64,000 bases of DNA, taken from IMG/VR virus record IMGVR_UViG_3300046524_000328; one strand, 5' to 3'. How positions within the stretch are numbered: the first letter of the stretch is position 1; each line of letters opens with the position of its first letter. This document shows, one piece after another, positions 2,608 through 57,887 of the stretch. The position numbers and the translations under genes are program-made. The notes beneath the pieces were generated by a model. It worked only from the letters and a program-made list of their open reading frames with translations, ran no database searches and was not told where the DNA came from. Origin of the DNA: an uncultured virus (IMG/VR IMGVR_UViG_3300046524_000328). Lineage: Duplodnaviria; Heunggongvirae; Uroviricota; Caudoviricetes.

Positions 2608-3064
2608 ACAACAACAGACAAAGCAGGAGCGGCAGGCCGCCGCGCGCCTAGCAGCCGAACAGGCACGCATGGCCGCGTTTCTGGACAAGGGGAACCCGGA
2701 AGCGCACGACGCGCCCGCAGAGCCGCCCGCGCCCGACGTTGAGGGCGAGGCACCGGCGAGCGACGCGCAGCCCGCTGTAGAGGCCGCCAGCGAGCCCGCC
2801 GAGGCTGTCGCGGATGCCGAGGCACCGGCCGCCGCGCAGAAACCCGCCAGCAAGGGCAAAAAGGGCAGGGACGCCGGTTTGCCGTGGGCGAACGCTCACC
2901 CGCGCGTCAAGGTCAACTTTTCGACCCAGTTCAGTGAAGAACAGCACATGAAACTGACCTGGCTCACTGAGAATATGACCGGCCGCCAGTCAATCCAGAA
3001 ACTCGTGCATGAGGCCGTCGATGCGCTGCTCGACAAGCGCATCAAGGAGATTCTGAAATCATGA
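2600..3064 (+). CDS. ParG-like/RHH-type partition protein 1
   Basis: Overlaps the parA stop; disordered N-terminus and a C-terminal beta-alpha-alpha pattern. Confidence 0.65.
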   Translation: MAEQQQTKQERQAAARLAAEQARMAAFLDKGNPEAHDAPAEPPAPDVEGEAPASDAQPAVEAASEPAEAVADAEAPAAAQKPASKGKKGRDAGLPWANAHPRVKVNFSTQFSEEQHMKLTWLTENMTGRQSIQKLVHEAVDALLDKRIKEILKS

Positions 3065-3465
3065 GATACGCGCTCAAACCCGGCTTTCAGTTCCGGCCTG
3101 AGGACTTGGTCCCTGTTCCCGACGGCGAGCCGATGCCCGCCGATCACGCGCCGCTGCCTGAGCGCGTGCTGCCATTTGAGGTCGCGCCGGTTGCGGCTGC
3201 ACAACGCATGCATCGCGCCACACCTGAGGCGACGGCAGGGCAGGGCAGGCTCGATCTGCGCGCGAAGCCTCGCAGGCCGTGGGAGGACGCTCATCCCAAG
3301 GTCACGAAGCCGTTCAATCTGCGCCCGGCAGAGGAACTGCACGCAAAGCTGAAATGGCTCGCGGAGCACATGCCGAACACCTCGATGCAGAAAATCGCCA
3401 TGCAGGGCATTGAGGAAATCGTTGATCGCCTGATCGCCCAATACGACACGCCCGACCGCGACTAA
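3061..3465 (+). CDS. RHH-type protein 2, paralogue of the upstream gene
   Basis: ATGA overlap; its C-terminus PWEDAHPKVTKPFNLR...KLKWLAEHM..SMQK aligns with PWANAHPRVKVNFSTQ...KLTWLTENM..SIQK. Confidence 0.65.
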   Translation: MRYALKPGFQFRPEDLVPVPDGEPMPADHAPLPERVLPFEVAPVAAAQRMHRATPEATAGQGRLDLRAKPRRPWEDAHPKVTKPFNLRPAEELHAKLKWLAEHMPNTSMQKIAMQGIEEIVDRLIAQYDTPDRD

Positions 3466-3466
3466 G

Positions 3467-3480
3467 ATAGATATGTCTAT
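3467..3480. promoter_or_regulatory. palindromic box ATAGATATGTCTAT (copy 1 of 3)
   Basis: Recurs at 51723-51736 and 57813-57826. Confidence 0.55.
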
Positions 3481-3485
3481 CGCCG

Positions 3486-3523
3486 AGCCCGACACTCGCC
3501 AGAGGTCGGGCTTTTTGCTTTTT
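3486..3523 (+). terminator. intrinsic terminator after the par operon
   Basis: AGCCCGAC...GTCGGGCT stem followed by a T tract. Confidence 0.75.
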
Positions 3524-3653
3524 GGGGTTTGGGTTGGGGGAAGTCTCTGAAAGAGACAACAACAGGGGTTGTTGTTGTTTTTAAGTAAACAACATCTTTA
3601 AAACCTTTAGGCTCATTAAAGCCTTATCCGGCGCGGGTTTGCGGGCAGATTCA

Positions 3654-3969
3654 GCATAGTTTGCGGGACGTCATAGCATAGTCTGCGGGACGGTTCGCGA
3701 GGGATAGAGCATAGTCTGCGGGATAAGGCATAGTCTGCGGGATGGCAATGAAAACAGGCTCGTAAACCGCCGTAACATGATGATTTATAACGATATTTAT
3801 GCGTCTATTGGGTATAGGTAAGCCAATATTGAGCATAGTCTGCGGGACAAAGAGCATAGTTTTCGGGATGCCCGGCGCGGCGCGAGGCCATAGAGCATAG
3901 TTTGCGGGATGAGGCCGCCCAATAGAGCATAGTTTGCGGGATGAATCGCATAGAGCATAGTTTGCGGGA
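3654..3969 (+). repeat. plasmid origin: 9 iterons GCATAGT(T/C)T(G/T)CGGGA split 4+5 by an AT-rich spacer
   Basis: Copies start at 3654, 3676, 3709, 3728, 3833, 3854, 3895, 3927 and 3955; AT-rich stretch at about 3770-3830; directly upstream of rep. Confidence 0.9.
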
Positions 3970-4047
3970 TAGCATAAGGCATACATATCACCTTGCCGGT
4001 ATGCTGTTAACCTACTACACTTCGCCCCATTGCATCGGGGAGAGGTC

Positions 4048-5295
4048 ATGGGGAGAGTGAAAGCGGCCGACAAGGTCGGCATTGAGGTGTTACCGGCAGA
4101 GGCCCGGTCGGCAGAACTCGCCAAGCTGGACGAACGCGAGTTGCGCAAGCACGTCGCGACAATCCACGTCAGCGGCAGTCTGTCTCTCGTTGAGCGCAAA
4201 ATCGTGAATGTGCTTTTATTGCACGCATACGATGACCTGCTCACGAAGCGTGAGCACACCATGTCGGTGAAGTTTCTGTGCGAGGCAATCGGATGGGAGG
4301 CGAGCAACGATCACAAGAAACTCGCGCAGGCCGCCGAAAACATCATGCACAACATCGTCACGCTGAACATGTTCGCGGACGGCAAAGAGGATTGGAAAAA
4401 AACGCCGCTCGTGTCGTCTATCGGCGTGAGCAATGGGCGGGTGACATACGCGTATATCGAATGGCTCGCCGACCGCCTTGCGCGCCCGGAAGTGTTCGCC
4501 GCCATCGACATTAAGATGCAACGACGCTTCAAGAGCGGTTATGCGCTCGCGCTGTATGAGAACTGCCTGCGCTATCGGACCATCGGACAAACCCGGTATG
4601 CGCCCGTCGATACGTGGCGCGAACTGCTAGGCGCGACGGGAAAAATGTACGAGCAGTACCGGCATTTTTCCAACTTCGTCTTGCAGAAGGCCATCAAGGA
4701 AGTCAACGCCGTTTCGGATATCGACGTCGAACTGCGGTTTAAAAAGGTCGGCCGCACGGTAACCGAACTGCAATTCGGCGTGACGGAAAAGGCCCAGGCG
4801 GAACTGCCGTTCGAGGCGGACCCGAAAGAGGCCATGCTGCGCGAGCAGTTGACCGCTATCGGCTTCGGTGAGTCCAGCATAAAGAGCATTCTTTCGAAGA
4901 ACCTGCCGCGCGCCGCGCTCGCGATCAAGGTCACGCTGGAGCGCGAGGCGGCGGGGAAAATCACCGGCTCGCCTGCGGGCTACTTCATGAGCGTGTTCGA
5001 GAGCGATTCGCCGCTGGATCTGCCTGAGCGCAAGACAAGGAGAGCCGTCAAAGCGCCAGCGCTGCCGTCGCCCGATGAGGTCAAGGCAGACAGGCAGGTC
5101 GCCACGACGCGCGGAGCATGGGGCAAGCTGACAGACGATGAGAAAGAGGCGATTACCGTCGCGTTCATCGAGCAGACGCACGCTCAAACGCGCATCGGCG
5201 AGAAACACGAGTTCGCCAACATCAAGGAAAAGGCCAACTGGACAGGTTTTCGCGGCAAGCGAGCCGCTGAAGTCCTCGCGAGCCGGGAGACATAA
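4048..5295 (+). CDS. plasmid replication initiator (Rep_3/RepB-type winged helix)
   Basis: LSLVERKI, SGYALALYE, VLQKAIKEVN and GRTVTELQF motifs; adjacent iterons. Confidence 0.9.
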   Translation: MGRVKAADKVGIEVLPAEARSAELAKLDERELRKHVATIHVSGSLSLVERKIVNVLLLHAYDDLLTKREHTMSVKFLCEAIGWEASNDHKKLAQAAENIMHNIVTLNMFADGKEDWKKTPLVSSIGVSNGRVTYAYIEWLADRLARPEVFAAIDIKMQRRFKSGYALALYENCLRYRTIGQTRYAPVDTWRELLGATGKMYEQYRHFSNFVLQKAIKEVNAVSDIDVELRFKKVGRTVTELQFGVTEKAQAELPFEADPKEAMLREQLTAIGFGESSIKSILSKNLPRAALAIKVTLEREAAGKITGSPAGYFMSVFESDSPLDLPERKTRRAVKAPALPSPDEVKADRQVATTRGAWGKLTDDEKEAITVAFIEQTHAQTRIGEKHEFANIKEKANWTGFRGKRAAEVLASRET

Positions 5296-5328: not shown

Positions 5329-5814
5329 TTAGTGGTGAGCGCTGGCGTAGGTTATCGATGCCATCAACGCGGCGCACGCGGCCGTGCCGTCGGGCAGCTT
5401 CACCGGCTGCACCGCCGCCTTGTCGGCCGACGAGCTTTTATCCGTTGCGGCCGTACCCCAATGCGACCAGCCGAACGCACGAACGCCCGCCCACATAAGC
5501 TGACGTCTCCACCACGGCACCGCCGTTGCGGCCGACGCCTCACGCAATACCGCGTCCGCGACGTCTCGCGAAACGATATGCGTCGAATAGAGGTAGTCAT
5601 GCACCGTCGCCGCCGCGCTCGACGTGTCGCCCGCCAGTTCATACACGACGGGAATACGCGGCACACTCGCGAAGTTGGTCACGAAGCCAGCGGGCACGGT
5701 GATCGTGCGCCGGGCGACGTCAGACTGATACACGAGGCAATCGAGCAGCCGCCAGTTGTCATCGTCTTTTGAGGTGGCGGGCTCGACGCGCAGCGGCGAC
5801 AGGAATTTGCTCAT
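5329..5814 (-). CDS. DUF1353-family protein at the end of the lysis cassette
   Basis: VPAGFVTNFASVPR, AATVHDYLY, ADAVLREA and GVRAFG signature. Confidence 0.8.
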   Translation of the reverse strand: MSKFLSPLRVEPATSKDDDNWRLLDCLVYQSDVARRTITVPAGFVTNFASVPRIPVVYELAGDTSSAAATVHDYLYSTHIVSRDVADAVLREASAATAVPWWRRQLMWAGVRAFGWSHWGTAATDKSSSADKAAVQPVKLPDGTAACAALMASITYASAHH

Positions 5815-21330: not shown

Positions 21331-22236
21331 TCAGGGGTTGTACATGAAGGTATCGAACTGCGTGAACGACAACTGGATTTCCTGCAAGCCGTCCTCGCCA
21401 CGGTTCATTTCCGTTTCGAGCGTGCCGGGCCGCATCACCCATTTGCGTTGCAGGCCGCCAAAGCGCTGCATCACCGTGTCATTGACAGCCGCCTGCAACA
21501 GGCGGATCTGCACGAGGTAGTCAGCGGGTACGCCGAACGTGCCATCGTTGTGTGCCATGCCATCGAAGCGGGTTTCAAACCAGCGCTGGATTGAGCCGTA
21601 GGCGTCATCGAGCGTGGTAATACGGAGTTCCGTGCGCCCGCTGCCATGCAGGTTGTCCATCTGCGCGGACCCGATGTTGACGGCCTCGCCTTCAGCCGTG
21701 CACGGCCCGAATGACACGCTCGTTGAGAACAGGTTGAACAGGCCGGAACTCTTGCCCGCCGTGCCGCTGCCGGGATAAAAGTCAAGAATCTCGACATAAA
21801 AGAGGTTCTTTTTCGCGTAGTTCGTGCTCTGCACTTCCTGAATGATCTGGCGCGCCTCGAACGGCGTGATGCCGCCGAGCAGAGGGTTGGCCGTCGCCTC
21901 AAACAGAAGGTCTGACGCAAAGGGGCTCGTGAGCGCGTTGTTGATCTTTTTGCCGATGCCCGTTTCGCCGAACGCTTCAAGCCCCGCGCCGATGAAGTCA
22001 CCGCGCAGCGCTTTCGAGAGCGGGCCTGCGGCGGCCGGTGCGAGCTTGCCGACGGCATTCTTGAGCAACGACGTGCCCGCGCCCACGAGCGACAGGCCGC
22101 CAATGCTGGCGTTGCCGAGCAGGCCGCCAGCGCCGCCGCTGCCAATGCCGGAACCGGGACGTTGGGTAATATCGTCAAAGCGCGACGAGTTCGAGCCGCC
22201 GCCAAGGTCGCGCGCGACCGCGTCAAAAATCGACAT
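21331..22236 (-). CDS. tube-like baseplate/tail protein
   Basis: Between portal and tape measure; LRITTLDD and LQEIQLSFTQF. Confidence 0.5.
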   Translation of the reverse strand: MSIFDAVARDLGGGSNSSRFDDITQRPGSGIGSGGAGGLLGNASIGGLSLVGAGTSLLKNAVGKLAPAAAGPLSKALRGDFIGAGLEAFGETGIGKKINNALTSPFASDLLFEATANPLLGGITPFEARQIIQEVQSTNYAKKNLFYVEILDFYPGSGTAGKSSGLFNLFSTSVSFGPCTAEGEAVNIGSAQMDNLHGSGRTELRITTLDDAYGSIQRWFETRFDGMAHNDGTFGVPADYLVQIRLLQAAVNDTVMQRFGGLQRKWVMRPGTLETEMNRGEDGLQEIQLSFTQFDTFMYNP

Positions 22237-23828
22237 TATTCGACCTCGCTGTTGTCGTCCGCGCCGGGCTTGCCGCCGCCACCGCCGCCGAATCTACCGC
22301 CACCACCGCCGCCGTCGTCGGGCGGTTCTTTCGGCATGCCCTTAACGATCAGCTTGACTTGGTCCTCATCGAGCAGCGCGATTTTCACGAGGATTTCAGT
22401 GAGCGCCTTCGGATCAAGGGCAAGGTCGCGCAACTGTTGGAGCATCTGCACGAGCAGCAGGCCCGTATTCATGGCCTCTGTTTTCGTTTTCTGCCGCTCG
22501 CTTTCGAGCGCGCTGATCGTGCCGTAGAAGTTGACATGCCACGGCCGCTCATCGGCCGGGAAAATGATCCCGTACTTAGCGTGCGTGTGAATGTCGATGA
22601 TGTGATTGAAAAAGTCCGACAGACCAACGCGGATGAGGCGCGAGCGTTCGGCCGCCTGCGCGGACGTACGGAAAAAGCCGCCATCGCCCAGGCCGCCCGA
22701 CAGCAGTTCGGAAAAGCCGAGCATCGACAGATCGATACCGATTGCGCCGGACAGCAGCTTGGCGTGAAAGAGCACGTCCTCAATGCTGATCGAGCCGCTA
22801 GGACCACGGCCGCCGCCATTCGTGAGCGAGCCATTGATGGCCGTAAGCTGCTTTTCATCGGTGACGGGGATGATGTTGTACACCCGTTCGAGCACCGGCT
22901 TTCCGCTTTGAATCGCCCGCTCTGCGCGGGCCTTGCTGGCTTTGAGTACCCGCTTGATGTTCTCCATGAAGGAGATGCGCTGCTCTTTCGTCATGCCCTG
23001 CTGATTGACGGTCATCATGCTTTCGTCAATCGAATCGAGCACGCGCTGCCCGACGAGGCCGACGAGCGCAGCCGATAGCTGATCGTATGGCGCCTCTGCC
23101 GCGTCGAGGAACGATCCGCCGATGAGCGACGGCATGTTAGGCAGGGCGTGTAGATTGTCCTCGCTCAGGGCCACGCGAATGGCTTTCTCCATCGCGCGCA
23201 CCTGCGGGATATAGACCATGCGCGGCATCTTCATGCGCGCCATCTGATAGATGTTGAGGCGTTCGGTTGCCTTTGCGCCGCTGGCGACGACAAAGCCCAC
23301 GGTCTGATTGCCGCGCTCGTAAGAGGTCACCATCGACGGGTGCACGAGTTCATCGACATAGACGTCGACAACGCCGCGCTTGCCTTCCGTGTACACCCGC
23401 CCGTAAGCGTCGCCGAAACCCGCGCCGTTGAATCCGACGGTGTACGCAATGCGGTTAAAGATCGGCGCGAGGTCTTTCGCGATTTCGGCCGCGATCTTCT
23501 CTTTCTGCTTGTCGCCCTTGGCGTCCGGTGCCGTCTCGATGAATACCACGTCCCCCGACGTCTCGTGCCCGCCGAGGGCCGCCGTGACATGCAGGCGCAG
23601 CGCGGTCGAAATGATCGGGTCACCGACCATTTCAATCCACTTGAGGTAAATCTGCATCCGGTTTCGCGCCGTGCGCTTGCCGGTGCCGAGCAGCATCGAG
23701 ATAGTCAGGCCGTCCGTGAGGGCATCGGCCTGCTCAGTTTCCGAAATGGCGTTGTTGGCTGCGCGACTGGGGAGAAAGCGCGACAGGAAACTTTTGGCCT
23801 TGCGGGTTGCTTCCGTAGTCGTTTGCAT
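22236..23828 (-). CDS. portal protein (P1 Prt-like)
   Basis: 530 aa; DPIISTALRLHV, GDAYGRVY and GGLGDGGFFRTSAQAA. Confidence 0.75.
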   Translation of the reverse strand: MQTTTEATRKAKSFLSRFLPSRAANNAISETEQADALTDGLTISMLLGTGKRTARNRMQIYLKWIEMVGDPIISTALRLHVTAALGGHETSGDVVFIETAPDAKGDKQKEKIAAEIAKDLAPIFNRIAYTVGFNGAGFGDAYGRVYTEGKRGVVDVYVDELVHPSMVTSYERGNQTVGFVVASGAKATERLNIYQMARMKMPRMVYIPQVRAMEKAIRVALSEDNLHALPNMPSLIGGSFLDAAEAPYDQLSAALVGLVGQRVLDSIDESMMTVNQQGMTKEQRISFMENIKRVLKASKARAERAIQSGKPVLERVYNIIPVTDEKQLTAINGSLTNGGGRGPSGSISIEDVLFHAKLLSGAIGIDLSMLGFSELLSGGLGDGGFFRTSAQAAERSRLIRVGLSDFFNHIIDIHTHAKYGIIFPADERPWHVNFYGTISALESERQKTKTEAMNTGLLLVQMLQQLRDLALDPKALTEILVKIALLDEDQVKLIVKGMPKEPPDDGGGGGGRFGGGGGGKPGADDNSEVE

Positions 23829-23855
23829 GGCGTGGGCGATATGAGAACAGCGTCC

Positions 23856-23898
23856 ATTGTTGACGCTGATCTTTCACCCGCCCGCTCGCGTTTTCCTC
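23856..23898 (-). promoter_or_regulatory. candidate late promoter variant GAGGAAAA-N29-AACAAT (portal operon)
   Basis: One mismatch in the octamer; exact spacing. Confidence 0.65.
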
Positions 23899-23914
23899 GC
23901 GCGCCACGCAAAGC

Positions 23915-23949
23915 AAAAAGCCCCTGCGACGCATGTCGCAGGGGCTTTT
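23915..23949. terminator. bidirectional intrinsic terminator
   Basis: AAAAGCCCCTGCGAC-GCAT-GTCGCAGGGGCTTTT. Confidence 0.85.
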
Positions 23950-24045
23950 CTGGAGCACATCAATGGATCAAGCTAACCCTTTCCGGGGTATGCCGGTCTA
24001 GCCGTCCGGCATATCGCGCCGTCTCCACCACAGAACCGACGCGAC
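23915..24045 (-). ncRNA. candidate ~130-nt structured sRNA
   Basis: Extended -10 TGTTATAGT (24060-24052); three hairpins with minus-strand G-U pairs; ends in the terminator. Confidence 0.55.
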
Positions 24046-24152
24046 CGGCGAACTATAACAAGCGCGCTTTGTGTAGGGAAGGGGGATTCATACGATAAAG
24101 ACGGCTATTTCGTCTCCGCAGCGATTGTGCCCGCGCGAGGCGGGCGGTTCTC

Positions 24153-24413
24153 TTAGCTGCCGTAGCCGGGCGACAGGCAGCGTTCAGCGCGGCTCTCTGC
24201 GCGCACTTCGGCGGCGGCCTGCCATTCTGCGCGAATCTGCTGTGCAGCCTCTGCGGGCGTTGCGCCGTCGCGGCACAAGTCGTCGCATGTGCCTTCCTCA
24301 TCCGACCCATCGAGAATATCGCAGCCGAGGATTCTCTCGACAGAGCGCACGAAGCGGTCGTATTCGCGGTCGGTTGCCGCTTCTGCGCGGGCCATCGTTG
24401 CCATGTTTTCCAT
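24153..24413 (-). CDS. small acidic early protein
   Basis: GGGAG SD; third gene of the early operon. Confidence 0.55.
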   Translation of the reverse strand: MENMATMARAEAATDREYDRFVRSVERILGCDILDGSDEEGTCDDLCRDGATPAEAAQQIRAEWQAAAEVRAESRAERCLSPGYGS

Positions 24414-24457
24414 GCCGTGCTCCCTACGTTGTTGGCCCGCCGAGGCGGGCGATTTGA

Positions 24458-24643
24458 TCAGCGCTCGACGGCGCGGAAATCGTTGGCGGCGTCGATCATG
24501 TCCTGCTCTTGCTTACCGGCGCGCACTTCCTTTTCGTACAGTTCTTCGGCTTCCGGGCGGGTGCAGTTCTCGCACGCCATGATCGTGTCAATCCACTGCT
24601 CGCGGTCATCATTCGCGGCCTCGTGCCGCATATCGTCCATCAT
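24458..24643 (-). CDS. small acidic early protein
   Basis: GGGGG SD; D/E-rich. Confidence 0.55.
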   Translation of the reverse strand: MMDDMRHEAANDDREQWIDTIMACENCTRPEAEELYEKEVRAGKQEQDMIDAANDFRAVER

Positions 24644-24655
24644 CGGTGCCCCCTG

Positions 24656-24967
24656 TTAGACGTTGGAAACTTCGACCTTCATGCCAGCCACCACAAGGCG
24701 CTTGAGCGCGTCATTCAAATCGCGCCAGTCCGAATAGCGCTTCTCGTGATCTTCGGCGTCGAACCAGCGCAGCACCCATTGATCCTGAACGGGCTTTGCG
24801 GCACCGTCGGCGCGGTCGATCACCGCTTGAATCTTTTCGCGCATCCACGGACGGGCCTCAGAGAGCGGGTACTGCTTGCCGTCCCAGTCGATCATCTGCG
24901 TGTCGCGCTTGAACGTGCCGCGAATGCCGCTATGCGAGAACGAAAGGGTGTTTCTGATCTTTGCCAT
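24656..24967 (-). CDS. hypothetical early protein
   Basis: First ORF after a consensus sigma70 promoter. Confidence 0.6.
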   Translation of the reverse strand: MAKIRNTLSFSHSGIRGTFKRDTQMIDWDGKQYPLSEARPWMREKIQAVIDRADGAAKPVQDQWVLRWFDAEDHEKRYSDWRDLNDALKRLVVAGMKVEVSNV

Positions 24968-24993
24968 GCTGCGCCCCGGTTTGATGTGTGGTG

Positions 24994-25030
24994 GAGACTC
25001 AATAGTATGTTGTCACACTTCCAATTGCAA
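24994..25030 (-). promoter_or_regulatory. early sigma70 promoter TTGCAA-17-TACTAT with the GTGACAACA operator motif
   Basis: One of four near-identical promoter/operator units. Confidence 0.8.
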
Positions 25031-25091
25031 CTACTTTTTGTAGTTGCAAAAAGTCTTTGCGCTTTCGACTTTCTGCACTACAATAAGTCAC

Positions 25092-25361
25092 ATGAAAATT
25101 ACATTTGACCCGGACAAAGACGCGATCAATCGCGACAAGCACGGCGTATCGCTCGCGGAGGCAGCGCGGCTTGACTGGAACGGCATGCAGGTTGTGCCCG
25201 ACCTGCGATACGCCTACGGCGAGGATCGTTACAAGGGAATTGCCGCGTTGGGGAATCGGCTGTACGCCGTGATCTACACCCCGCGCGACGATGTGAAACG
25301 GATTATCAGCCTGCGTAAGGCGAGCCAGAAGGAGTTTGATGAATATGAACACGAAAACTAA
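25092..25361 (+). CDS. brnT: BrnT-family toxin
   Basis: FDPDKDAINRDKHGVSL, YGEDR and RIISLRKA. Confidence 0.9.
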   Translation: MKITFDPDKDAINRDKHGVSLAEAARLDWNGMQVVPDLRYAYGEDRYKGIAALGNRLYAVIYTPRDDVKRIISLRKASQKEFDEYEHEN

Positions 25362-25650
25362 GCTGATCCGTCCGACGGACGATGAAGAAAAGGCAATCCA
25401 GCGCGGCATCGCGGCCGACCCGGATAACCCGGAATGGACGGCTGACGACTTCGCCAATGCGCGGCCGTTTAAAGAGGTAGAGCGCAAGCGCATGGGCCGC
25501 CCGCCGCTTGATCGGCCGAAAGAGCAGGTGACCATTCGCTACGATGCAGACGTCGTTGCGGCTTTCCGCTCGACAGGTGAGGGCTGGCAAACGCGCATGA
25601 ATGACGCCCTCAAAACGTACCTGAGCGAGCATCCGCTGCGCGCGGCCTGA
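25339..25650 (+). CDS. brnA: BrnA-family antitoxin
   Basis: GRPP..PKEQVTIRYDADVV..FRSTGEGWQTRMNDAL. Confidence 0.9.
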   Translation: MNMNTKTKLIRPTDDEEKAIQRGIAADPDNPEWTADDFANARPFKEVERKRMGRPPLDRPKEQVTIRYDADVVAAFRSTGEGWQTRMNDALKTYLSEHPLRAA

Positions 25651-27006: not shown

Positions 27007-30000
27007 TTAAACGAGGTAGTCGGAGAGGTTCAGGCCCAGGTGCTTGAACAGGGCGTTGACCGATGCAACCGGCTTGCCGTCACTGAACGCTTCACCGTCC
27101 TTGATCGTCACCCGGAAGCACTTGCGGACGTTGTCAAACGTGCGCCCCTGCAAGCCTTCCGCACCCGCCGCCGCGACCTTCTTTTGCGAGTCGGAGTAGC
27201 GAACAAACGTGATGTTTATATACGTGTTCGCGTGATAGACAAAGTGCGCTGAGTAACGGTCCTGAAACTTCGTCTCATCCGTCGTGCCGATATCGGCACC
27301 CAGTACACCCGGAATCGCGCGAATCGCGCCGAGGATGCCTTGAATGTCGACGCCAGCGGCATCGAGCGCACGCATCGACTTCGCCTTTTTCGCTGCCTGG
27401 CACATCATCTGCCATTGCGGCGACATGATAGCAAGGGCGATGGCCGTCGCATCCGCCCACGACTCGACATAGAGGCGTGCCGACTGAGGCAGTTCCATGT
27501 CGGCGCGCGCGTCCTCGACGCCCACCTTCAGCGCGATGTAGTCGCCCGTATCTTCGAACACGAGTTCCGTCAACTGGCGGCCGTGCGCGCGCGTGAAGTC
27601 CGCAGGCATATAGGACGTGTACGCCGTGGCCAATGCCGCGATTTCGTCATTCAGAAACCCGCTCTGAATGGCCGACGTCAGCGCACCGATAAACGGCGCG
27701 GCGAGCTTGTAGCGCTGCGACTGCGAAACGGTGTACCAGCGCTCTTTGCCGTCGTCGACCTTCATCTGCTCGCGGCGGAAACGCGAAATGCCATAACCGA
27801 GTGCCGATTCGAGCCGGTCCACCTGCAGGAAGTCCTGCTTGCTGTTGAACCACGCGAGCGCCCACGCTTCGAGCGCTTCAGGTGAGGTCGATTGTGCAAC
27901 GCCGTCGGGCAGGGCGTCGAAAAATGCGTCCGTCAGATTGAGCGAATCGAGCGCCTTTTCCATCGAGATATACGAGGACACACATGCGACGTCCTGAGCG
28001 GTCGCGCGCAGGCCCGTTGCGCGGGCATAGTCGCGGATAGCAGCGCAGCGGCCGGGGACGTCCATCGGCAGTTTCGGGCCGATCACGCGCATGTCTTTCA
28101 GGCGCACGTTATCGCGGAAATCGCGCTCTGCAATGAGCGGTTCCTGCTCTGCCATGATCCGCTCAATGAATGCGCTGCCCGTCGCGTTGTTCACGAGGAT
28201 GAACGGGAAAAGCGGTGCGGCGAGGCAAATCGTGTCGCTGTCGACCATCATCGACGGAATCGCAATCGTGAGCGCGTCGCGCACGTCGCCATTGAGCGAC
28301 GAATACAGATAGGGGCTTTCCGCCGAGAAACCCGACTGGGTATTGCCGATCACCTGTTCGTCAGCGGCGGCGGCGCGCGCGACGGCGGCCGAATATTCCG
28401 GCGTGTTCTTTTCCACGAACACCGGACCCGTCATGCGCAGCACTTCCGTTTCAGACTGATCGGCCGGGTTATAGCCGACAAAGCCCTTGGCGGCGTCCGT
28501 CGCCTTGCGCGGCTTGGCGACAACGAGCAGCTTGCCCTGGTACTCGACAAACGAGCCGACCGTGAGCAGGTGACCCGTCACGATCCGGGCATCGCCGCGC
28601 ATGAACTTGTCGAGCACCTCGCCCGTATAGCCGTCGTCGGTGCGGTTGCCAAACGTCACGCCCGCCTCGTCGCGCATACGGTCTGCCATCGAGAGGTCTT
28701 TCTGCCAGTTCGCGTAGGCCGTCGTCGCCTTTTCGTCGTCGGTGATGGCCGACCATTCCGAGCGCACCACGACCAGCCCGCGCGAGTCACGCGGCAGGCC
28801 GTTGAGCACTTCGAGTTGGTCTTGCAGCTTCGCGCGCAGGTCGGAAATCTGCGTATTCAGCCGCTTCGCCATCAAAGCCGACTCAGTCTTGTCGGCGCGC
28901 TCGCGCAGTTCGTTGATCTTTGCGGCCGTCTGCTGCGCCACACCGTTCTTGTTCTTGATCCACGCGGTAAAGCCCTTGCGGCCGTCCTGATCGCGCTCGC
29001 TCGGGCCGCCCATGCCGTATTTCGCAAGCCAGTTCTGTTGCGCCTCAATGATGCGCACAGCCTGCATCTGCGCGACCTTCGCCGCCATGATCTTTTGACG
29101 CTTGTTGCGCGCGGCGATTTCGTCATTGATGCGGTCCATTGCGGACGCGTCGCCGACGGCGTTTGCAAGCATTTCATAGTCGGATGCCGACAGGTCGCCC
29201 TCGATCTTGACCTTCGAGGAATCGCCCTGCATGAGCGCGCCGATCCAGTCTGCCTTGATGCCGACCAGCTTGCGCTTGTACGCGTCAAACGTGCCGTCTG
29301 CGTCGTAGTGGTAGACCTTTACCGTCTCGACCGGGTTGCCCTGACGCACGCCGCGACCGTTACGCTGATGGATGCTGTCCGGCGTCCATCCAATCGTCAT
29401 GTGATGGATAGCCTGCGTGCCCTTTTGCAGATTAATACCGACTTCCGCCTTTTTGTTGGCAATGACGATGCAATACTTGTTCTCGTCGCCGTCAGCGTTA
29501 TAGCCGTCCTGCACGTCCTGCATGCCCGCGACGTCAACCGAGACGGCATTGACGACCTTGATTTTCGCGGCCGGGATGCCGACCTGTTCCGCAATCGCCA
29601 GCTTGATCTTATGGTGCAGGCTCAGTTCGTCACAGAAAATGATCTGCTTCGACTTGCCCTGATAACGCGGGTGCAGGTTTTCGAGCTTGACGTTTTCGAT
29701 CAGCGCGGCGAGCTTGGGGCTTACCGTGATGGTCGGCGTAATGTCGTTCGCGTCGAGCAGCTTGAGCAGCGTTTCCTGCGTGCTGTAGTCCGTCGACAGC
29801 AGTTCGATTGCGCTGCCGTTGGCCGACTTTCGCGCGCGGATCGTCACGAGGAATTTCGAGACGGATTCGCCCGTTTCCGCGTCCTTTACGACCTTGGTCT
29901 TAATGTCGGCCGGGTCGGCGTTGTCATCGAAATAATCGCGTTCTTCAACGATATTCTTTTTGTTGAACGCGTCGATAGCCTTCTGCGCACCCTCGCGCTG

Positions 30001-33000
30001 ATCCGCCGAAAAATGGAACGTGAAAATGCCCTTGTCCAATTCCGGGTCGTTGATGACGCGCGTCATCTTGCGGATCAGGTTGAACGGCGAGCCCGCCAGC
30101 TTGTCCTCTGCATCGCCGCCGCCAGCCTTGAGCCGCTCGACGGCTTCGAGATACTTGTTTTTGTAGTCGATGATGGTTTCATACGACTCGCGGCCGATAT
30201 CGACGCCCGTTGCGACCTCATCGTAGGCGGGCACGCTGATATCGATGCCGTCGGCCTTGACGTCGTCCGCCGTCTTGATGAGCGCGGACGTTTGCAGCAA
30301 GCGGCGCAGCAGACCGGCGTTTTGCAGGCCCGTAAAGACGCGCACCGGCCGCATGATGCCGACAATGTTTTCTTCCTCGCGTTCTTCGATATCGCACGCG
30401 GCCGCCATGAAGGAATCCGCGCCGGTCACGCCGTACATCGCATTCACTTCGCGCTCGCCGAGCGCCAACGTCAGCATCGAATACACTTCGAGTGGGCTGT
30501 TGGTGACGGGCGTCGCGGTGAGCGCGAGCACGCCATCATTGCGCGTCGACAGACCGCGCACGTACCACGATTTCGCCTGCATATCCATGCCGCGTTGCGA
30601 CTTGGCGGGATCAGCCAGATATTTCGCGCCCTTGAACTCGCTCGACGTCAGCTTGGAGTTTTTGAAGTTGTGCGCCTCATCGAGCACGAGCGAATCAATA
30701 CCCATGTCTTCGAAGAAGGGCAGTGCGCCCGACTTTTCGCCTACGTCCTTAACGTTGCCCTGCTTGCTCGCGGCGGCGATGTTGGCGCGCTTCTTCATCG
30801 CGTCTTCTTCAGCGAGCAGATACGCGTCGTCGTTCTCCGTCAGGTACGCAATGTAGGCGTCCATCGTTTCGTCGCGCAGCGGGATCAGCTTGAACGCTTC
30901 GAGCGTCATGAAAATCTTGCTGTGACGGTTCTCGCGGATCGTGTTGAGGTCGGCCTTGACCTGCGCGTTATCGACCTTGTCTTTGCCGTCCTTACCCTTC
31001 ACGATGCCGACAAACAGACAATCTGACGTGTCGAGATACGCTTTCCCGGCTTCCTTCTTCCAGTTCGTGAGTGTCGCGTTCGGCACCACGAAAATGGTTT
31101 TCTTCTTCACACCGATGCTTTGCGCGTACTGGACGGACGCGAGCGCGGTGAGCGTCTTGCCGAGGCCCACGTCAAAGCCGAGGATGCCCGAAAACTGGCG
31201 GGAATAGCGGCGCGCGGCTGCGTACTGGTAGGCGTGCGGGCGGAACGTTGCCGTATTGAGGTTGGGAATGTCGAGCGGCGTGCCGTCCGGTTCCTCAATG
31301 AAGCGCAGCGCTTCCGGCGCGTTCAGCTTGTTGCGCAGGTGTACCTGAATCTCATCGTTTGCGCGCGCCCATGCGTCAAACTGGGCTTTCGCGTTGTCGG
31401 TGATTTCCTTGATCCGGCGCAGCAGTGCGGCCTCGCGTTGCGGGTCGGCTTCGACGTCCGACTGCTTCGACATGGTCGTGATGTTCTGGTTGCGCAGGTA
31501 GCCCTTCACAAACCGTTGCATCGCCTTGTACGCGGCCTTTTCTTCGTCGCTCGCCCACTTGCCGACAGAGGGCTGCTTGATATCGAACACGTCGCGGCCG
31601 TCGGCATCCGTCGTCAGAAAGATATCCGCCGACACGTACTGCTTGAGAAACTCCAGCTTTTGCAGCGGCGAGATATGCGGCGTGAAAAGGCTGAACGTCA
31701 TTTTCGAGACGTCCACGATATTCACGCGGGCCTTGGCCGATTCGATCTGCTTGACCAGCTTCGCGCGGATATCCGGGTCCGTGCACTGGGCGAGTTCCGC
31801 CTCTGCCTGCTTCAGAAAGTCCGCATACGAGCCGGTGTAATAGTCGTTCGCATGCGTGACGTGCTGCCCGTCGGCCGACACGCACCACTCATCCGACGTG
31901 AGCGGATCGAAGTCGGAGAACGCCTCGCGCATCTTCGCAACCGACACGTACCCGGTTTCGTCCTCGCTTTCGTACTTCGTCTTTTCGTAAAGCTGCGTGG
32001 GCGTGAGCGCGATGGTTTCGACGTTGGCTTTGATTTCGCCGAGCCAGAAGGCCGTAAATTCGCCCTTGTAGCGCGCATTGCGAATCGAGAGCAGGGCGTC
32101 TTTCACGAGGCGCGACGCCTTGCCGATGGTCTTGTTGCCGTAGTTCTGCACCTTGGCGAGTTGCGCCGAGAGGGCCGGGTACGCTTCGAGATAGTTGAAC
32201 GGCTCGACGCTGTCGGCGTCCTGCATGAGCTGCATCGCGGCCATGCCCGCCGTGATCGCTTCCCACCACGGTTGCATGTCGCCTTCGCCGAGCGAGTCGA
32301 TAGCCTTAAGCGTCGCCGTGAGCCATGCAGGCACGTCGGAATAGCTGCCCTTGGCGTTGGCATAGCGCGCATAGCCCTGCGCGTCTGCGAGCGTCACGCC
32401 CGCCGTCACGGCCGCGAATGCCGTACTGATCTTCGTGCCGACGTCGAGCATTGCGCGGTCATCGGCAACCGACGAATCGAGCGCAGTCCATTGGCCGTCG
32501 CGGTATTCCAGCGTCTGCCCGTCCTTATGGATCACGTCGCCGTCTTTGTAGACGATGGGCGCGGTTTCCGTCGTGTTCAGCAGTTCCCAGTCGATATGCG
32601 AATCGGGGAAACGGCGGATCATCTTTGCGATGTTGCTGATCGAGTCGTCGGAAATGACGGCTTCGACCTCGCCATACTTGCCGTTGGTCGTGCCGACCTC
32701 GCCGAGCACATACTTTTTGCCTGTGCCGGTGAAATAGCGGCCTTCCAGAAACTCATCCCACAGCACATTGGCCGTGCGCAGCGTGTCCGGGCTCTGCGTT
32801 TCGAGTTCGCCGATCTTCGTCGCCGCGTCGCGCGCGAACTTGCGGAAAACGATAACGTCGGTGATCGTGTCGGCGGCGGCCGACTCGCTGAAAATCTTGT
32901 TCGGCAGGCGGTACGCACCCACGAACTCAGCCATCAAAGACGCTTGCAGGCGCAGCTTCTGAGCCTTCGCACCCTTGCCGCTGACAATCGACGGCGGCAC

Positions 33001-33828
33001 GATGAAAGCGGCGAGCCCGTTCTGGCGCAGCTTCTGAAGCGAGCGCAGGATGAAATACTCTTGCAGGTTCGCCTTCTGGAAACGCTTGTCGGCCAGCTTC
33101 GCATCGCCGCGCATGGCGTTGTCGCCAAACGGGACGTTGGTGATGATCGCGTCGTAAATCTCATCGGGCGTGGCCGCCGCGACAGCCTCGAACGGCGAAA
33201 CCGTCGTGCTGACAGTCGGGCCGTCGTTGATCGCGCCATTGATTGCGCCGCTCGTTGCGTCGAGTTCGATCTGCGTCATCACGGCCGATGCCGGGCGCGT
33301 CGCGGTGAATACGCCCGTGCCTGCCGACGGGTCGAGCACAGAGCCGCCCTGGAATCCCAATTCGCCGAGCAGGCCCCACATGGCGGCAGCAACGGGCTTC
33401 GGGGTGTAATACTCGTGCGGCGAGCCGGTGAGGCCGTCCGCGCCGGTGAGTCCGCCGCCATTGCCCGAATACTTCGCGAGCACAGTGCGGTCTTCGTCGG
33501 TGACGGCGCGGCCTTCGGCCTGAATCTCGCGGATGAGGGCGATAGCGGCGTTGTTGTCGCGCTGGCGTTGCGCGAGCGTCTTGCGGCCTTCCTCAGGGTA
33601 AAACTCGCCCGTCGGTTCCGTGCGCACCGGCACGGGTTCCGGCTGCGGCTCGACCGCGACTGGCGGGCGCACGCCGAGCGCGAGCGCGATATCGCGCAGG
33701 CGCTTGCCGATCTTCAGTGCCCGGATTACGTCGCCGGTATCGGCTGACAGGGTTGCGCGCTCAGTGATGAGGTCGCGCGCCTCTTTCGCCAGCTTCAGGC
33801 GTTCGAGGTCAATTTGCAGAGAGGTCAT
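27007..33828 (-). CDS. darB: DarB-like N6-adenine methyltransferase-SNF2 helicase fusion (virion internal antirestriction protein)
   Basis: EYYTP, VLDPSAGTG, NVPF; VGLGKT, DEAH, TATPVTN and QRNGRGVRQGN; 2273 aa. Confidence 0.9.
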   Translation of the reverse strand: MTSLQIDLERLKLAKEARDLITERATLSADTGDVIRALKIGKRLRDIALALGVRPPVAVEPQPEPVPVRTEPTGEFYPEEGRKTLAQRQRDNNAAIALIREIQAEGRAVTDEDRTVLAKYSGNGGGLTGADGLTGSPHEYYTPKPVAAAMWGLLGELGFQGGSVLDPSAGTGVFTATRPASAVMTQIELDATSGAINGAINDGPTVSTTVSPFEAVAAATPDEIYDAIITNVPFGDNAMRGDAKLADKRFQKANLQEYFILRSLQKLRQNGLAAFIVPPSIVSGKGAKAQKLRLQASLMAEFVGAYRLPNKIFSESAAADTITDVIVFRKFARDAATKIGELETQSPDTLRTANVLWDEFLEGRYFTGTGKKYVLGEVGTTNGKYGEVEAVISDDSISNIAKMIRRFPDSHIDWELLNTTETAPIVYKDGDVIHKDGQTLEYRDGQWTALDSSVADDRAMLDVGTKISTAFAAVTAGVTLADAQGYARYANAKGSYSDVPAWLTATLKAIDSLGEGDMQPWWEAITAGMAAMQLMQDADSVEPFNYLEAYPALSAQLAKVQNYGNKTIGKASRLVKDALLSIRNARYKGEFTAFWLGEIKANVETIALTPTQLYEKTKYESEDETGYVSVAKMREAFSDFDPLTSDEWCVSADGQHVTHANDYYTGSYADFLKQAEAELAQCTDPDIRAKLVKQIESAKARVNIVDVSKMTFSLFTPHISPLQKLEFLKQYVSADIFLTTDADGRDVFDIKQPSVGKWASDEEKAAYKAMQRFVKGYLRNQNITTMSKQSDVEADPQREAALLRRIKEITDNAKAQFDAWARANDEIQVHLRNKLNAPEALRFIEEPDGTPLDIPNLNTATFRPHAYQYAAARRYSRQFSGILGFDVGLGKTLTALASVQYAQSIGVKKKTIFVVPNATLTNWKKEAGKAYLDTSDCLFVGIVKGKDGKDKVDNAQVKADLNTIRENRHSKIFMTLEAFKLIPLRDETMDAYIAYLTENDDAYLLAEEDAMKKRANIAAASKQGNVKDVGEKSGALPFFEDMGIDSLVLDEAHNFKNSKLTSSEFKGAKYLADPAKSQRGMDMQAKSWYVRGLSTRNDGVLALTATPVTNSPLEVYSMLTLALGEREVNAMYGVTGADSFMAAACDIEEREEENIVGIMRPVRVFTGLQNAGLLRRLLQTSALIKTADDVKADGIDISVPAYDEVATGVDIGRESYETIIDYKNKYLEAVERLKAGGGDAEDKLAGSPFNLIRKMTRVINDPELDKGIFTFHFSADQREGAQKAIDAFNKKNIVEERDYFDDNADPADIKTKVVKDAETGESVSKFLVTIRARKSANGSAIELLSTDYSTQETLLKLLDANDITPTITVSPKLAALIENVKLENLHPRYQGKSKQIIFCDELSLHHKIKLAIAEQVGIPAAKIKVVNAVSVDVAGMQDVQDGYNADGDENKYCIVIANKKAEVGINLQKGTQAIHHMTIGWTPDSIHQRNGRGVRQGNPVETVKVYHYDADGTFDAYKRKLVGIKADWIGALMQGDSSKVKIEGDLSASDYEMLANAVGDASAMDRINDEIAARNKRQKIMAAKVAQMQAVRIIEAQQNWLAKYGMGGPSERDQDGRKGFTAWIKNKNGVAQQTAAKINELRERADKTESALMAKRLNTQISDLRAKLQDQLEVLNGLPRDSRGLVVVRSEWSAITDDEKATTAYANWQKDLSMADRMRDEAGVTFGNRTDDGYTGEVLDKFMRGDARIVTGHLLTVGSFVEYQGKLLVVAKPRKATDAAKGFVGYNPADQSETEVLRMTGPVFVEKNTPEYSAAVARAAAADEQVIGNTQSGFSAESPYLYSSLNGDVRDALTIAIPSMMVDSDTICLAAPLFPFILVNNATGSAFIERIMAEQEPLIAERDFRDNVRLKDMRVIGPKLPMDVPGRCAAIRDYARATGLRATAQDVACVSSYISMEKALDSLNLTDAFFDALPDGVAQSTSPEALEAWALAWFNSKQDFLQVDRLESALGYGISRFRREQMKVDDGKERWYTVSQSQRYKLAAPFIGALTSAIQSGFLNDEIAALATAYTSYMPADFTRAHGRQLTELVFEDTGDYIALKVGVEDARADMELPQSARLYVESWADATAIALAIMSPQWQMMCQAAKKAKSMRALDAAGVDIQGILGAIRAIPGVLGADIGTTDETKFQDRYSAHFVYHANTYINITFVRYSDSQKKVAAAGAEGLQGRTFDNVRKCFRVTIKDGEAFSDGKPVASVNALFKHLGLNLSDYLV

Positions 33829-39914: not shown

Positions 39915-39951
39915 TTGCATGTTCAAACGTGACAACATACAATTGAGGCTC
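39915..39951 (+). promoter_or_regulatory. early sigma70 promoter TTGCAT-17-TACAAT with operator motif
   Basis: GTGACAACATACAATTGAGGCTC. Confidence 0.8.
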
Positions 39952-39972
39952 AATCACACAACGGGGTGACCC

Positions 39973-40315: not shown

Positions 40316-40352
40316 TTGCACTGGATAACGTGACAACATACAATCAAGTCTC
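40316..40352 (+). promoter_or_regulatory. early sigma70 promoter TTGCAC-17-TACAAT with operator motif
   Basis: GTGACAACATACAATCAAGTCTC. Confidence 0.8.
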
Positions 40353-40370
40353 ACCCGACAGGAGCGCGGC

Positions 40371-57812: not shown

Positions 57813-57863
57813 ATAGATACGTCTATTGACAGCCTCAATTGTGACAACATACTATTGAGGCTC
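57813..57863 (+). promoter_or_regulatory. early promoter TTGACA-18-TACTAT carrying both operator motifs
   Basis: ATAGATACGTCTAT at the -35; GTGACAACATACTATTGAGGCTC at the -10. Confidence 0.8.
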
Positions 57864-57887
57864 CCACACACCACGACGGGGCACACC

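Follow-up and report, generated by a model that had tools for sequence, protein, structure and literature searches.

A candidate trans-acting antisense RNA with an invariant G/U-rich loop in P1-like phage-plasmids of Paraburkholderia

This study concerns a predicted small RNA (sRNA) gene on the minus strand, at positions 23915-24045, of a stretch of 64,000 nucleotides (nt) from an uncultured virus of the Caudoviricetes (IMG/VR record IMGVR_UViG_3300046524_000328); we call this whole stretch the window. The window is part of a P1-like phage-plasmid, in which a set of P1-type virion and anti-restriction genes (DarB-like, Ulx-like, portal, sheath, tube and baseplate genes) stands alongside genes for plasmid maintenance (ParA-like, ParB-like and a replication initiator). 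Its close relatives are records of 88-98 kb, one of them a 93,160-bp contig of Paraburkholderia sp. C35. The sRNA gene is placed between a cassette of three small open reading frames (ORF1 to ORF3, 24967-24153, minus strand) and the portal gene (23828-22236, minus strand), while the opposite strand carries, diverging from the ORF1-3 promoter, a BrnT/BrnA toxin-antitoxin pair and a gene with an ATP-dependent ligase domain. A sequence-only reading of this region, made without database searches, had proposed here an antisense RNA whose loop would pair with the leader of an early operon, in the manner of the RNAs that control immunity in P1 and P4.

Anatomy and conservation of the predicted RNA gene

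The features which that reading had placed on the minus strand (an extended -10, a start at G24045, three hairpins and a strong terminator) are all present at the positions it gave. The extended -10, TGTTATAGT (24052-24060), carries the TAT(A/C)GT hexamer that lies 6 nt before the first hairpin in all of the nine homologues described below, and exactly 19 nt 5' of it is a CCCTTCC box with a weak -35-like TTCC(C/A)(T/A) (24077-24083, minus strand). The predicted transcript of about 131 nt, for which fold, covariance model and covariation all speak, would open at its first base with hairpin 1, GUCGCGUCGGUUC-UGUGGUG-GAGACGGCGCGAU (24013-24045, read from the sequence and from RNAfold), whose apex holds the proposed seed CUGUGGUGG (24025-24033). 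It would continue with hairpin 2 (AUGCCGG/CCGGCAU, 23990-24012), hairpin 3 (ACCC/GGGU, 23976-23989), a single-stranded linker UGAUCCAUUG (23961-23970) that is kept in the relatives L002 and L003, and an intrinsic terminator with a 16-bp stem and a U-run (23915-23949). Folding of the 131-nt RNA with RNAfold returns exactly these three hairpins and the terminator, with a minimum free energy of -65.6 kcal/mol (z -4.35) that none of 200 shuffled sequences equals.

By way of the portal protein and of DNA patterns, the search recovered nine distinct homologues, namely the window's own (locus L001), L002, L003, L005, L024, L027, L029, L008 and L007 (the names L012, L004 and L021 are equivalent to L003, L005 and L024; the L003 copy is the one on the C35 contig, L024 lies in genome G004, and L026, to which we return, in G009). 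All nine share one layout (a TAT(A/C)GT -10, six bases, a hairpin of 11-15 pairs with an apical (C/U)GUGGUGG, and an intrinsic terminator), and all nine stand directly 5' of a conserved element that is the portal gene's own. The spacing of the CCCTTCC box is the same in the window, L002, L003, L005 and L024, and a second subgroup (L027, L029, L008 and L007) has a different -35 region. Predicted lengths are 131-151 nt for the long forms and 79-88 nt for the short forms L008, L007 and L027, which consist of hairpin 1 and the terminator and are missing hairpin 3. This anatomy, repeated in nine of nine homologues, points to a discrete minus-strand small RNA gene with its own promoter and terminator, as the sequence-only reading had held.

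The gene is present as a single copy in G002, G003, G004, G005 and the window, and is absent from G009, where a reverse-oriented gene with a signal-peptide-like start replaces the sRNA module (L026:2500-3000); in G001, the nearest record, the corresponding region falls outside the span of the record. Among the relatives examined, no sRNA was found 5' of the portal gene in L009-L011, L013, L014, L025, L026, L028, L030-L034 and L038, nor in any of those with about 50% portal identity. A covariance model of the long form (R1) scored 156, 149 and 141 bits for the window, L003 and L002, and 28 and 25 bits for L024 and L005; run over 83 sources it returned no members beyond these five, the short forms L027, L029, L008 and L007 being missed by this long model. 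Over 151 genomes sampled from the genus of G011, R1 gave a true match in G011 only: another 44 genomes of that genus matched weakly or by way of the terminator, and the signature of promoter plus loop occurred in none of the 19 other loci returned. One pattern scan of viral contigs produced seven stretches, six belonging to the family (one record being new) and one due to chance, and a second produced 48, of which four belonged to the family and were all already known. Nothing similar to 23850-25150 turned up when the plasmid and phage collections were searched by BLAST in distant mode.

Compensatory changes in the stems are found among the relatives. With the three close sequences alone, 5 of the 39 predicted pairs show such a change. 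When the five full-length members (the window, L002, L003, L024 and L005, which cover helices 1-3) are aligned by fitting them to the structure, 97.9% of cells are paired, versus 42-52% with slid partners, and both sides have changed in 23 of the 39 pairs (9/13 in helix 1 and 5/7 in helix 2), values that none of 500 shuffles reaches; the helix 4 rows of this alignment include three reverse-strand terminator matches. Hairpin 1 contains between one and five G-U pairs per homologue, as noted earlier for the window, and its sense strand is more stable than the reverse complement in eight of the nine. Its arm-shuffle z ranges from -0.2 to -4.1, so that thermodynamics alone gives weak support for this hairpin in some members.

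It is the apical loop that is the conserved part: GUGGUGG is invariant in nine of nine homologues, versus stem arms that are identical between subgroups at just 5/14 to 12/18 positions. The longer motif CUGUGGUGG is identical in seven of the nine, the remaining two (L007 and L008) reading CCGUGGUGG. Close relatives differ by indels of 1-3 nt, and because of these there is no conserved reading frame; ORFs that overlap the sRNA match no Pfam family. This conservation and covariation put the structured RNA beyond chance and show a constraint at the RNA level on the minus strand. The gene also has two features of trans-encoded base-pairing sRNAs in general, an independent promoter and terminator and a conserved seed set in a variable, structurally maintained scaffold.

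Loop, boxes and neighbouring genes

The sequence-only reading was built on a 12-mer of the loop, UGUGGUGGAGAC (24032-24021), that is perfectly complementary to GUCUCCACCACA (24987-24998, minus strand), a stretch predicted to be unpaired at the 5' end of the ORF1-3 leader, and this complementarity is exact. A duplex-energy scan ranks the site at 24998 about fifth of 42,648 scanned segments, with better energies at the sRNA gene's own antisense strand and at 5494, 10102 and 57067 (all on the plus strand). The site at 5494-5523 (plus strand), GUCUCCACCACGG, matches the sRNA apex over 13 nt, one of the pairs being G-U, and is kept in G002 and G003; it is antisense to a DUF1353 gene and consequently not in a sense transcript, and would most simply reflect conservation of coding sequence.

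Pairing over 12 nt is not conserved, since L003 has an identical leader and an RNA that pairs with just 8-9 nt of it. What is conserved is a core of 8 nt, that is, the loop UGUGGUGG against boxes reading CCACCAC(A/G), the core of the window's target being CCACCACA (24994-24987). In the window, GUCUCCACCACA begins 4 nt after a TTGCAA-17-TACTAT promoter (25030-25002), and L003 has the same box in the same leader, right after the promoter module. Sense-strand CCACCAC(A/G) is found in the 5' leaders of small genes, no more than 1-2 kb 5' of the sRNA gene, in the window, L003, L002, L005, L027 (which has two box sites near the RNA gene) and L029, so that the proposed complementarity between the loop and the leaders of nearby small genes holds in the relatives as well as in the window. 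Further boxes occur in complete relatives at G003:62407, G005:40152 (behind a copy of the promoter module) and G005:80429. Some of the boxes come just after the start of a promoter module, and others lie 0-4 nt 5' of a Shine-Dalgarno sequence. They are predicted to be unpaired; the box of L003 forms the 8-nt loop of a modelled GUCUC/GAGAC hairpin, which suggests a loop-loop contact. In the eight sRNA-bearing portal loci, 6 of 23 CCACCAC occurrences are adjacent to a ribosome-binding site (RBS), versus 1 of 123 in the 74 loci without the sRNA (Fisher p 5e-5).

The genes concerned are small. ORF1 (103 aa, 24656-24967, minus strand), the first gene behind the box-bearing leader, and ORF2 (61 aa, 24458-24643, minus strand) belong to no PHROG or Pfam family. 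The same is true of ORF3 (86 aa, 24153-24413, minus strand), a member of a small family of proteins of 86-91 aa with the invariant C-terminus RAERCLSPGYGS (L002:1618-1893, L005:1211-1477, L027:1226-1495 and L026:1478-1750). In the window and in L003 the leader of ORF3 itself has CCAACAAC in place of the box, which sits in the operon leader, and the ORF3 homologues of L002, L005, L027, L029 and L026 have AUCCACCAC 1-3 nt before the Shine-Dalgarno sequence. ORF3 has eight database homologues, of which the five with a source name are all called "hypothetical protein"; its AF2 model is a three-helix protein (pLDDT 79), for which Foldseek found nothing in the PDB at E <= 0.001. ORF1-3 encode small proteins without an assigned family and no recognisable antirepressor.

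The promoter of ORF1-3 (25002-25030, minus strand), with its GTGACAAC element (25016-25009), is one of four modules in the window. The others, detected as module matches on the plus strand, lie at 39915-39960 (leader GGCUCAAUCACAC), 40316-40360 (leader GUCUCACCC) and 57826-57875 (leader GGCUCCCACACACCACG); they correspond to the three other related leaders reported from the sequence, each of which does stand behind a module GTGACAACATAC(T/A)AT. The consensus, TTGCRY-N8-9-GTGACAACATAC(T/A)AT, has 20 copies in the window and five complete relatives (16 of them in G002-G005 and G009). Two variants of the module, GTGACAAC and GTGAGCGC (GTGA(CAAC/GCGC)ATAC(T/A)AT), split the window, G002 and G003 from G004, G005 and G009, and look like the repressor operators of two immunity types. 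Dispersed C1 operators are described for P1 (PMC8546580), and it is by analogy with these, not as a result, that we would regard the modules as repressor-controlled "early" promoters.

A perfect inverted repeat, TTGCAACTAC-N5-GTAGTTGCAA (10-5-10, 25025-25049), unique in the window at zero mismatches, lies between the ORF1-3 operon and the divergent genes for the BrnT toxin (E 7e-21) and BrnA antitoxin (E 5e-28; 25092-25650, plus strand). It is probably the operator of the BrnT/BrnA pair and, because it overlaps the -35 of the ORF1-3 promoter, the two units may be co-regulated. Farther upstream of the cassette is the gene for the DarB-like giant protein (27007-33828, minus strand).

On the other side, 3' of the sRNA terminator, the portal gene (22236-23828, minus strand; phrog_1497, E 1.3e-158) has no obvious Shine-Dalgarno sequence and is preceded by a conserved element, AGGAAAACGC ... 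(C)AACAATGGACGCTGTTCT, located at 23840-23900 (minus strand) in the window and about 20-100 nt before the start in L002-L038. The conserved sequence GGAAAACGC (about 23895-23887, minus strand) is likewise the portal gene's own. All 22 close relatives have GGAAAA(C/T) at 74-97 nt before their portal match, whether or not the sRNA is present; of the full set of 75 portal loci, 42 have it. The element may be a late-promoter or activator site of this phage group. The sRNA linker, UCCAUUG(A/U)UG (23961-23970), is complementary to CAACAAUGGA (23855-23864, minus strand) within the element, over 7-10 nt in the window, L002 and L003 and not in L005, L024, L029 and L008; this would be either a second seed specific to the subgroup of the window, L002 and L003, or chance. 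In L003 the portal frame (3001-4518, a tblastn match) has one internal stop in its translation, either an issue of frame or coordinates or a real break.

A proposed antisense mechanism and its rivals

We think it reasonably probable that the gene encodes a previously undescribed trans-acting antisense sRNA, carried by a clade of P1-like Paraburkholderia phage-plasmids, that would act by masking a C/A-rich box near ribosome-binding sites. In the mechanism that we propose, a sigma-70-type promoter of the sRNA's own, with an extended -10, would drive transcription that starts at the first base of the 5' hairpin and stops at the strong intrinsic terminator. The sole fixed sequence of the sRNA, the G/U-rich apex (C)UGUGGUGG, would pair with the unpaired CCACCAC(A/G) in the leaders of small accessory genes and so cover up either the ribosome-binding region or a C/A-rich enhancer, lowering translation and probably also the stability of the mRNA. 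The outcome would be that the accessory genes are silent in the plasmid-prophage state. We infer each of these steps (that the RNA is made, that it pairs, that it represses, and that the genes are silenced in that state) from what is observed of the anatomy, the conservation, the covariation and the distribution of loop and boxes.

A number of observations weigh against this proposal. The bare 12-mer is at chance level in the window: exact 12-nt complements of the sRNA occur there at four other places, and 300 control segments of 131 nt taken from the window have a mean of 9.5 such complements, 98% of them having at least one, so that the case must rest on conservation. Relatedness is a confounder when the sRNA-bearing loci are compared with the others, and the boxes amount to no more than about 3-4 independent leader types. 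Across six whole genomes, RBS-adjacent CCACCAC accounts for 9 of 120 occurrences versus 20 of 533 for 20 permuted C/A 7-mers, an excess of about 2-fold with p 0.085, and only 4 of the 20 promoter modules have a box. Pairing beyond the 8-nt core is not conserved (the leader of L003 is that of the window, and its loop flank differs), and cognate duplexes are not systematically stronger than non-cognate ones. G009 has lost the sRNA and kept a box before its ORF3 homologue (L026); conversely, G004 (L024) has the sRNA and no RBS-adjacent box by the criterion used, and no box was found in the 2 kb examined 5' of the sRNA in L008, whose record is partial. In the window, 19 nt separate the end of the box from the AUG, which places it at the limit of a ribosome footprint, and part of the seed is predicted to be engaged in 2-3 weak apical pairs. 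Finally, the co-variation of loop and leader that the sequence-only reading had looked to is not visible, because loop and box are both invariant. The lineage of L007 and L008, with its loop CCGUGGUGG, is of interest in this respect: boxes reading CCACCACGG would be the first case of covariation between loop and box, and unchanged boxes would be neutral.

Some of these points would also be accounted for if the RNA, though real, had a protein or some other molecule as its partner and served as a sponge, decoy or scaffold that is bound at its conserved loop, the boxes being ordinary C/A-rich enhancers whose complementarity is coincidental or reflects the titration of a shared factor. The persistence of the box in G009 without the RNA, the frequency of C/A-rich leaders (as with the 20 of 533 permuted 7-mers next to an RBS) and the lack of cognate specificity beyond 8 nt agree with such a scenario. 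We nevertheless hold it to be unlikely, in view of two independently conserved and perfectly complementary 8-mers that lie no more than 1-2 kb apart in six lineages, for which coincidence is an unlikely explanation, and of the absence of a recognisable gene for an RNA-binding protein beside the RNA gene. The position of the gene, with a strong promoter and then a strong terminator directly 5' of, and co-directional with, the portal and tail genes, could also be that of the terminated leader of a late structural operon, similar to the PR'-6S RNA of lambda, in which a phage antiterminator would read through into the portal gene and the hairpins would serve as recognition site. This we find quite improbable: an element of the portal gene's own is kept in every one of the 22 close relatives, among them L013, L014, L025, L026, L028 and L038, which have no sRNA before that gene, and since the element is kept without the RNA module, that module would be dispensable for portal expression; the complementary boxes would, moreover, be left unexplained.

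It could be argued instead that CCACCAC/GTGGTGG is a DNA site, bound by an asymmetric repressor that acts as a roadblock just 3' of several promoters, that of the sRNA included. The operators of C1 in P1 are asymmetric, and the motif does occur at +5 to +20 behind promoters in the window, L003, L027 and at G005:40152, and at +14 to +22 of the sRNA gene. Boxes of the ORF3 type, however, follow terminator-like hairpins with no promoter nearby, the motif is limited to 4 of 20 promoter modules, and a DNA site has no need of covarying, G-U-rich flanking arms, all of which makes this explanation very improbable. To suppose that there is no stable RNA at all, the hairpins being the composite terminator region of the upstream cassette and the promoter-like sequence fortuitous, finds some comfort in the weak arm-shuffle z of hairpin 1 in four of nine homologues (-0.2 to -1.1); it would have to account for a -10 at a fixed distance from the hairpin in all nine, across two promoter contexts, for the invariant loop, and for covariation over three helices 5' of the terminator, and we give it very little credence.

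Other ideas were considered and rejected. An RNA anti-CRISPR (a solitary repeat mimic) would need the reverse of a conserved loop on variable stems. In a type I toxin-antitoxin system one expects short hydrophobic peptides, which the adjoining ORFs are not, and the nearby BrnT/BrnA pair is of type II and on the other strand. GTGGTGG resembles the Chi sequence of E. coli, and a Chi-like site would leave the covarying arms unexplained. Activation by unmasking was discarded on the ground that, in the predicted structures, the boxes do not tie up the Shine-Dalgarno sequence, with the exception of a weak, low-probability GUCUC/GGGGC pairing in the window leader.

Relation to known regulatory RNAs and biological meaning

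The view that the sequence is unfamiliar holds. At the gathering score, Rfam returned nothing in the whole window, C4 (RF01695) included, and at E values up to 10 in 23850-25100 there was no C4 row, just sub-threshold rows driven by the terminator, such as sodF_sRNA and ctRNA_p42d. RF01695 matched none of four complete relatives, in a search that was equally silent in all 14 control genomes. A full-text search of the open-access literature found no paper on such an RNA in phage-plasmids of Paraburkholderia or Burkholderia. What has been worked out in detail about regulatory RNAs in phage-plasmids comes, as far as we know, chiefly from P1/P7 (C4) and P4 (CI) of E. coli.

C4 stands at the head of the operon that it controls (c4-icd-ant), from which it is released by processing, and exposes two segments, complementary to a pair of sites in the leader of its target. 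Like it, the RNA described here is small, comes from a P1-type phage-plasmid and would, by our proposal, use an exposed loop to pair with a leader near the RBS and hold down phage genes. It differs in having its own promoter and terminator in nine of nine homologues, whereas C4 is processed from the transcript of the target operon; in having one conserved loop (the apex of hairpin 1) and one box per leader, as against two loops in C4; and in its setting, with no icd or ant nearby, the portal gene downstream and genes without a family upstream. Of the analogy with C4 and CI that the sequence-only reading had drawn, a loop complementary to leaders can be retained; unlike those two, the present RNA, with transcription signals of its own, does not belong to the leader of its target operon. 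The P1 c4 RNA is described as acting in trans to repress Ant synthesis (PMC8546580). With no model match, its own transcription signals, a single conserved loop and a different context, the present RNA is not a member of the C4 family, and we would speak of immunity here only by analogy with P1.

A closer parallel for the proposed mode of action may be GcvB of enterobacteria, which, according to PMC7534054, pairs with CA-rich translational enhancers 5' of the ribosome-binding sites of many mRNAs. Both would involve the same kind of mechanism, a G/U-rich seed meeting C/A-rich elements 5' of the RBS; there is, however, no homology or Rfam match between them, and the RNA studied here is phage-encoded, holds its seed in the apex of a hairpin and not in a linear stretch, and would target phage accessory genes. 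Base pairing is also how the CI RNA of P4, Sar of P22 and OOP of lambda, all encoded by phages, repress phage genes. CI is excised from the very leader under its control and brings about premature termination, and Sar and OOP are transcribed antisense to their targets in cis and overlap them; unlike these, the present RNA, compared with them by the Rfam scans, is encoded in trans and has 8-12 nt of complementarity. We class it as a new family of a kind already known, the base-pairing sRNAs encoded by phages.

One may go further and imagine that CCACCAC is a portable "address tag" that travels with small accessory cassettes and with copies of the repressor-type promoter, so that the loop of one constitutive sRNA would silence all tagged cargo in the prophage state. 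We regard this as speculative and rather doubtful. If true, it would mean a layer of RNA-based immunity at the level of the cassette, unrelated in sequence or layout to C4 or CI, and the decay of a box (as in CCAACAAC before ORF3 of the window) together with the gain of another (in the operon leader) would amount to a rewiring of the regulon between close relatives.

In any case, this is a structurally supported sRNA family with a short invariant seed, from P1-like elements of a soil- and plant-associated genus of betaproteobacteria. Its predicted regulon is small, consisting of accessory genes flanked by the anti-restriction genes (darB, ulx) on one side and the portal gene on the other. Should the pairing prove real, the family would offer a simple and testable case of the post-transcriptional quieting of variable cargo in a plasmid-prophage, and a handle on the function of the unannotated family of small proteins that end in RAERCLSPGYGS.

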